Source: Octopus sinensis
Taxonomy: Eukaryota
Direction of reading: 5' to 3'
Length of the DNA: 64,000 nt
NCBI RefSeq assembly: GCF_006345805.1
Contig: NC_043013.1
Location: 38,812,001-38,876,000, forward strand
Below, piece by piece: positions 63,382 through 63,854 of this stretch (position 1 is the stretch's first letter; each line of letters opens with the position of its first letter). Both the position numbers and the translations under genes were made by a program. The notes under the pieces are model-generated. The model saw only the letters and a program-made list of their open reading frames with translations. It did not search any database and had not been told where the DNA came from.

Positions 63382-63854
63382 ATATAAAAGGGCTTAGTAA
63401 AAAAATACTTTGCCGCATAAAACTCATTAGAAATAGCAGCCAAAAACTTTTTTAAAGCTATTTCTAATACTTAAGAAAATCTCTCTCATATATAGTGTTT
63501 GCTTAATTCACTCACAAAGTTTGGGGGTAAGGACATCGAAAAATCAAATGCTAAGTTATTCGAGAACGTACGTTTCAAGATTAGTCAAAACACATTTCTA
63601 TCATCGGCTCAGAAATTTCTGAGCCGATGATAGAAATGTTGTTTGACTAATCTTGAAACGTACGTTCTCGAATAACCTTAGCATTTGATTTTTCGATGTC
63701 CTTACCCCCAAACTTTGTGAGTTGAATTAAGCAAACCTATATATGAGAGAGATTTTCTTTAAGTATTAAAATAGCTTTAAAAAGTTTTTTGGCTGCTATT
63801 TCTAATGAGTTCAGTATGCGGCAAAGTAATTTATTTTACTAAGCCCTTTTATAT
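63382..63854. repeat. Spacerless palindrome of about 470 bp with a hammerhead on each arm
   Basis: Centre AGAAATTTCT (63611-63620); arms differ mainly by small indels; (TA)n on the left flank. Confidence 0.92.
63621..63669 (+). ncRNA. Minimal type I hammerhead (U4C variant); mirror copy at 63562-63610 (minus)
   Basis: GAG-CCGAUGA-U-AGA...UCU-U-GAAA-CGUACG-UU-CUC. Confidence 0.75.

Follow-up and report, generated by a model that had tools for sequence, protein, structure and literature searches.

A spacer-free, head-to-head pair of hammerhead-like repeat ends, probably one more truncated Penelope-like insertion

In Adineta vaga, Penelope-like elements (PLEs) carry inverted and direct pLTRs of ~200 bp, a one-sided 31-bp tail and palindromic head-to-head junctions, and self-priming has been proposed for these junctions in the Discussion of the same paper (PMC3846280). 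In PMC8557442, an adjacent inverted, 5'-truncated copy together with a tail of 30-40 bp is described as typical of PLEs, which show a bias for microsatellites, where their target-site duplications (TSDs) are often indiscernible. The inverted terminal repeats of Drosophila Penelope are variable in size (PMC2377424). As far as the ribozymes are concerned, a palindromic helix III is general in PLEs, and dual minimal hammerheads are found on opposite strands, ~100-700 bp apart (PMC4209133); the formation of dimers is assigned to same-strand tandems (review PMC6765202, citing Lunse et al.). In an anole PLE, cleavage is ATT-biased, two starts of reverse transcription bound the tail and the uncut RNA is the main template (PMC11167929). 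Head-to-head PLE ends, tails, a palindromic stem III and self-priming are all already in print (PMC3846280, PMC4209133, PMC8557442), and the formation of the inverted copies and the role of the hammerhead are still treated as open questions (PMC3846280, PMC11167929, PMC8557442). The accessible text of the literature holds no specific report of PLE hammerheads in the host animal group, nor of ORF-less palindromic PLE derivatives; subscription papers, repeat databases and supplements may describe the present family.

A stretch of 64,000 nucleotides (hereafter, the window) was analysed, which consists of animal-like DNA with many microsatellites and LINE remnants and contains an inverted pair at 63382-63854. 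The explanation that we favour, with a probability of about 0.8, is that this pair represents head-to-head copies of the hammerhead-bearing end of a high-copy repeat, with a one-sided tail, produced by a single insertion of an EN+ PLE into a TA microsatellite. The attribution to PLEs is made by analogy, from the architecture and from a sequence-unrelated neighbour, the ORF of the parent not having been recovered; it is probably correct. The pair would then probably be, and behave as, one more truncated PLE insertion of published shape, with small departures from the literature: the tail has ~95 nt, no spacer separates the arms, whose cores start 17 nt apart, and the core is degenerate.

Geometry of the inverted pair and its flanks

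The features of the locus are given below, from left to right (a point marks a feature without strand).

63310..63381, (.), left flank, a (TA)n microsatellite and likely insertion target
63382..63615, (-), left arm, an inverted, 5'-truncated copy of a pLTR-like element end, which terminates in a (TA)n run and has no tail
63592..63639, (.), junction palindrome of 48 nt, perfect and spacer-free, which includes the self-complementary AATT (4 nt) at 63614-63617
63616..63854, (+), right arm, the same element end in direct orientation, again 5'-truncated; family contigs cover it in four of four sequencing runs
63769..63806, (+), imperfect inverted repeat within the arm (mirror at 63431-63468), which may confuse read placement
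63855..63949, (+), one-sided extension (tail) of ~95 nt, covered by contigs in four of four runs
63950..63975, (.), right flank, short and TA-rich, with no distinguishable TSD

The two arms meet without a spacer, the centre lying between 63615 and 63616. The spacer-free palindrome with a perfect centre, which a sequence-only reading had proposed at 63382-63854, was recovered with a radius of 24; among the nine perfect palindromes of radius at least 9 listed for the window, it is the only one outside TA/CA microsatellites. The limits proposed in that reading are correct for the inverted pair but not for the end of the element, which reaches ~63949 on the right side.

An inverted, 5'-truncated copy is joined head to head to the direct one and a tail is present on one side only, as in PLE insertions. 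With Pen2a, Pen2 and Pen3a of A. vaga, as described in PMC3846280 and in the scheme of PMC8557442, the locus shares an end module of ~200-240 bp, the inverted head-to-head copy, the junction palindrome, the one-sided tail and the AT-rich target. Unlike these elements, it has no ORF or cargo after the direct copy, its tail measures ~95 nt instead of the published 30-40 bp, and no TSD is visible, both flanks being TA runs. These are also the points that speak against a PLE: neither arm contains an ORF, and no RT or endonuclease ORF could be linked to the 63382-63854 family. Non-LTR retrozymes (PMC7229834; bioRxiv 10.64898/2026.07.22.740005) are likewise short, non-coding, high-copy and PLE-related and bear a type I hammerhead; they are, however, arranged as direct tandem repeats, whereas the present pair is inverted and no direct repeat of the arm occurs in the 64-kb window, so that the tandem layout of retrozymes is absent.

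The arms are ~93-94% identical (BLAST), and the hairpin z-score of the inverted pair is -41.9. As had been noticed from the letters, they differ mostly by 1-nt indels, which holds with the default scoring (8 indel events and 5 substitutions) as well as with cheap gaps (15 gap columns and 0 substitutions). This pattern, for which no substitution is needed, is compatible with a mirror arm created by a long-read fold-back or by an assembly error at a single copy of the repeat. It is repeated in the pairs found at 46 kb and 13-16 kb in the window (0 and 4 substitutions for 5 and 24 indel events, respectively), in contrast to the dispersed copies, in which substitutions dominate; furthermore, fold-back reads are known and often spacer-free (PMC12338684). 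Poor polishing of a real, young palindrome would, however, explain the indels equally well. The mirror symmetry stops at the natural end of the element, where the family copies enter TA repeats, and both flanks are unique and not mirrored, which makes a chimera unlikely. In addition, four element-bounded hammerhead palindromes are present in these 64 kb, one of which, at 52 kb, shows 15 substitutions in 160 columns, beyond what error alone would produce, and independent public contigs likewise contain head-to-head joints. An artefact would also agree with the fact that no contig spanning the centre was seen among the 32 listed of 9623; as a perfect palindrome would be expected to interrupt a short-read graph, this absence is no evidence either way. 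Taking both sides into account, we judge an artefactual mirror arm to be very improbable.

The hammerhead-like motif and its predicted folding

Each arm carries one motif next to the centre, with the following parts.

63617..63672, (+), type I minimal hammerhead-like motif of the right arm, with stem I formed by 63617-63623 and 63667-63672
63624-63630, (+), core, with U4C
63631-63654, (+), stem II, weak
63655-63658, (+), GAAA
63659-63664, (+), stem III, palindromic; predicted cut after 63666 (U17)
63559..63614, (-), mirror motif of the left arm, with its core at 63601-63607 and stem III at 63567-63572

The GAG of stem I begins 5 nt from the centre on either side, and the two motifs, with cores starting at +63624 and -63607 (17 nt apart), read outward. 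A motif scan gave four matches in the window (two here and two in the pair at 46 kb), against a mean of 0.0 in 100 block shuffles. The position and the orientation of the two outward hammerheads had thus been correctly described from the letters; their designation as hammerheads went too far, the motif being only hammerhead-like and having no match to an Rfam hammerhead, even at E<=10. This Rfam test is insensitive here, since the motif at 46 kb, which is more canonical, is not matched either; over the whole window, Rfam gave 0 matches at gathering.

Judged by its pattern, the end module appears to carry a hammerhead of type I, whose helix III is small and palindromic and whose core is degenerate. 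GAAA and GUU are present, and the departures from the hammerhead consensus are U4C, U17 and the lack of a G10.1-C11.1 pair. The core consensus of active hammerheads (CUGANGA / GAAA / NUH) is broken by the C at position 4. At the base of stem II, a U-U stands in the place of the G10.1-C11.1 that would close a stable helix II, which comprises only ~3 bp here; the stem II region folds at -0.6/-0.7 kcal/mol, and the folding of the monomeric motif is no better than that of shuffles (z 0.58-0.70). The minimal PLE hammerheads with a small helix III, as presented in PMC4209133 and PMC6765202, are similar in being of type I, with a short helix I and a palindromic helix III suited to dimers. They differ from the motif at 63 kb by a helix II of 6-8 bp, by the absence of the three departures listed above and by cores that lie ~100-700 bp apart (PMC4209133). 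U4C reduces activity in vitro, yet it occurs in a viable viroid (PMC3088659), and among the retrozymes the weakly active axolotl HHR_Amex2 shows the same U-U mismatch at the bottom of its helix II (PMC7229834). We regard the motif as no more than hammerhead-like, and its predicted ribozyme activity as doubtful.

The sequence of stem III, CGUACG, differs from CAAUUG in the 46 kb pair and from CAUAUG in the 13.5/15.9 kb pair, in agreement with the sequence-only reading. Its view that the palindromic property is conserved while the sequence is not was also borne out, five of the six motif families of the window having a 6-nt palindrome and the sixth CG. It had further proposed that the inverted pair is selected for a dimeric fold of its two hammerheads. 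The persistence of a palindromic stem III across families is consistent with such a selection, as are the predicted stability of the 8-nt stem III self-duplex (-9.8 kcal/mol), the fact that no stem III variant of at least 10% is listed in the sequencing runs, and the cofolding of two sense copies in three other families (46, 44.7 and 15.9 kb), where the best structure pairs stem III between the copies. The two motifs lie on opposite strands, however, and the transcript of each strand contains one sense core only. This core is buried in a predicted hairpin of -361 kcal/mol and ~230 bp (unpaired probability <=0.003, i.e. paired at >=99%; stem I probability 0.0), so that no dimer is predicted within the palindrome. 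For two sense copies of the 63 kb family, a hand-drawn hammerhead dimer reaches -8.0 kcal/mol, against -24.0 kcal/mol for the best dimer. With the degenerate core (U4C, U17, no G10.1-C11.1 pair) and with none of the 11 other arm joints described below retaining both cores, selection for dimeric folding was abandoned as extremely improbable. As parts of the palindrome, the ribozymes are predicted to be carried along in inactive form. For the self-complementary stem III, the best reading is inheritance from the parent element, in which same-strand tandem copies can dimerise.

Copies of the family in public sequencing runs

Twenty of the 22 public runs listed contain part of the stretch; as the best of them has only 0.43 of its words, the runs may come from relatives. 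None of the runs listed as containing it is an RNA run, which says nothing about expression. Four of the 22 (X1, X5, X6 and X15, from three organism codes and three studies) were examined at 80% likeness, and the contigs falling on the stretch (1240, 5551, 929 and 1854, respectively) reveal a high-copy family. The zero contig depth at 63300-63414 falls in or beside skipped repeats and is not a finding. Pattern scans of viral, metagenome (twice) and prokaryote contigs gave 0 matches, which is uninformative since these are not animal genomes.

On the right side, 63854 is spanned by one X1 contig (63824-63906), whose shorter side comprises 31 letters, and loose contig ends are found beyond 63949 in X1 and X5. 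Six X1 contigs leave the family at the equivalent of 63854 and enter TA runs, like the left arm. At the other end, a different sequence is shared before 63614 by two contigs in X5 and two in X6 (four in total). The family thus likely continues upstream, and the centre of the palindrome would be a truncation point. AATT occupies this centre, where stem I has its upstream edge, and the predicted cut (after 63666) follows ~50 nt downstream. By eye, the 24 loose letters before 63614 in X6 are stop-free in the frame that ends at TGA 63620-63622; they could correspond to the end of the parent ORF, but frames of this length are frequently open by chance.

Position 4 is C in both arms, and no variant of at least 10% is listed at U4C, in stem III or at U17 in any of the four runs. 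These three features therefore look family-wide in the contigs examined. At 63791/63441, a G is present in both arms where most of the depth reads A (four of four runs); such substitutions, common to both arms, hint that the two arms derive from one template.

Besides the centre, 11 other joints between an inverted and a direct arm were observed, at varied places, five of them within 12 nt of symmetry; a go-back joint (63498 -> 63475) was excluded from this number. One of the 11 retains one core. Each joint corresponds to a single contig at 80% likeness, with listed short sides of 21-25 nt, and is weak; four of the 11 lie in the arm's own inverted repeat. As evidence for a variable centre, they are moderate at best. 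Whether the centre is fixed or variable across the family had been suggested as a check, and in these weak single contigs it is variable. Considered with the 929-5551 contigs per run, the joints, each weak by itself, point to dispersed, variably 5'-truncated copies.

These joints also bear on the possibility that the mobile unit is the palindrome itself, that is, a non-autonomous MITE-like or fold-back element with a fixed centre, moved as a whole by a DNA transposase with a TA target or by a PLE acting in trans. The long inverted arms, the TA flanks, the lack of an ORF and the high copy number are in line with this proposal, and one other joint shares the 5' end at 63614. Nevertheless, the other ten joints are located elsewhere and family copies have other sequence upstream of 63614. 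Instead of symmetric TIRs that bound the element around a fixed interior, the ends are asymmetric, with the 95-nt tail on one side, and the pair at 13-16 kb indicates that PLE insertions adopt such a shape in this genome. A mobile palindrome is consequently considered quite improbable.

Neighbouring families and the proposed route of insertion

A relaxed scan of the window gave six hammerhead-like families, four of which have U4C. Four families lie in head-to-head palindromes, in which the core-to-centre distance varies from 8 nt to ~1.2 kb.

13380-15995, hammerhead palindrome with an asymmetric centre of ~90 nt
45877-46270, hammerhead palindrome with a centre of 2-4 nt
52370-52704, hammerhead palindrome with a centre of ~25 nt
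63382-63854, the present pair, with a centre of 0 nt

The palindrome at 13380-15995 has the same layout as the present pair, with outward hammerheads at +15865 and -13508 and a longer left end. An ORF piece contained in it (14654-15316) has no Pfam match and no word-index match, and the Atlas matches to the remnant remained below 0.9, with low recognition; only the full phmmer search placed it, with 205 protein matches at E<=0.001. The long matches display an RT YRDD motif, a cysteine-rich linker and a YIG/YGG motif; among the 20 that were scanned, Pfam GIY-YIG was just under the cutoff in two and gave no match in 18. Alignments of these long proteins are obtained with the two arms and also with a solo copy at 50.7-51.6 kb; the linker points to the Neptune/Nematis type in the definition of PMC8557442. 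On the basis of these alignments, PLE insertions in this genome do occur as pairs joined head to head, in which the hammerheads read outward and one end is longer. As the 13-16 kb family has no sequence relation to the 63382-63854 family, it is an analogy and not the parent. The insertion mechanism common to the palindromes that had been put forward from the letters is likely, and it is already published for PLEs (PMC3846280, PMC4209133).

Several details of the neighbouring copies may be added. The regions 13203-15995 and 50110-51570 contain 5'-truncated PLE copies (RT thumb, linker and GIY-YIG remnant), those at 13-16 kb being head to head; the hammerhead of 13203-15995 has U4C and a long stem II, and its left end is longer by ~155 nt, in common with the solo relative at 50-51.6 kb. 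At 45815-46270, two near-canonical hammerheads with a CAAUUG stem III surround a central loop of 2-4 nt, with ~65 nt extra on the left; according to the predicted folds, this pair is the best candidate of the window for an active dimeric ribozyme. The palindrome at 52330-52760 is older and diverged; it contains a hammerhead with a long stem II at +52613 and half of a motif at -52381. Solo hammerhead-like motifs, both with U4C, are located at 44768-44856 and 62030-62075; the latter also has U17, and degenerate relatives of it are found near 16190 and 16604. Another remnant is possibly present at 55601-55906, where one PLE-like protein is faintly matched by tblastn (E 5e-4).

For the pair at 63382-63854, a single PLE insertion could proceed in the following way. 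The GIY-YIG endonuclease of the element would nick the AT-rich (TA)n target, and reverse transcription would start inside the pLTR/ORF-start region, each arm from its own point, and this difference would generate the tail. The RNA would be copied uncut, through the ribozyme, since neither arm has lost the cut site or the core that precedes it. Copying would then arrest or run off at the upstream edge of stem I, and the mirror arm would be made by self-priming or template switching at AATT, or by the annealing of two cDNA ends, leaving no spacer. As described in PMC11167929, PAc (Poseidon, Anolis carolinensis) resembles this scheme in its AT-rich target, in a tail arising from two RT starts and in an uncut RNA template, which fits the cut site retained in both arms; the ORF of PAc begins within the hammerhead, whereas no open frame follows the core here.

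A more specific version of the PLE insertion, which we consider unlikely when its parts are taken jointly, is that the family derives from Penelope, consists of the pLTR only and is non-autonomous. Its hammerhead, with U4C, U17 and no G10.1-C11.1 pair, would no longer cut and would have been retained to set the 5' limit of the template. RT would end at the upstream edge of stem I on the built-in AATT, the two cDNA ends would cross-prime, and the longer one-sided tails (in three families, estimated by eye at ~65-155 nt) would reflect RT starts that lie far apart. If this version were true, spacer-free palindromes would be direct footprints of PLE second-strand priming. More generally, where a genome has thousands of short pairs, their junction positions, spacers and tail lengths can be surveyed throughout, and this survey could separate fold-back priming from the annealing of two cDNAs.

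For annotators, it is of use that such pairs mimic miRNA precursors and MITEs. A match to mir-5985 (43.8 bits for a gathering of 100) was rejected as an effect of the hairpin. The sub-threshold Rfam matches at E<=10 were to miRNA, snoRNA and similar families, with no hammerhead among them, and were discarded. A scan for sigma-70 promoters and terminators is irrelevant to an animal genome, its terminator-like matches being the palindrome itself.

Elsewhere in the window, an uninterrupted ORF of 719 aa (31114-33273), which by eye resembles a multicopper oxidase in its motifs, is followed by a broken duplicate at 34001-35109, ~85% alike. At 16110-16992 and 39898-40983, near-identical adjacent direct duplications (~97%) lie in microsatellite-rich DNA and are possibly assembly artefacts; the first includes a short palindrome at 16378-16530. 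Finally, two related LINE-type elements (2027-5197 and 57706-61085), ~74% alike and broken by stops, have Pfam matches to endonuclease and RT.
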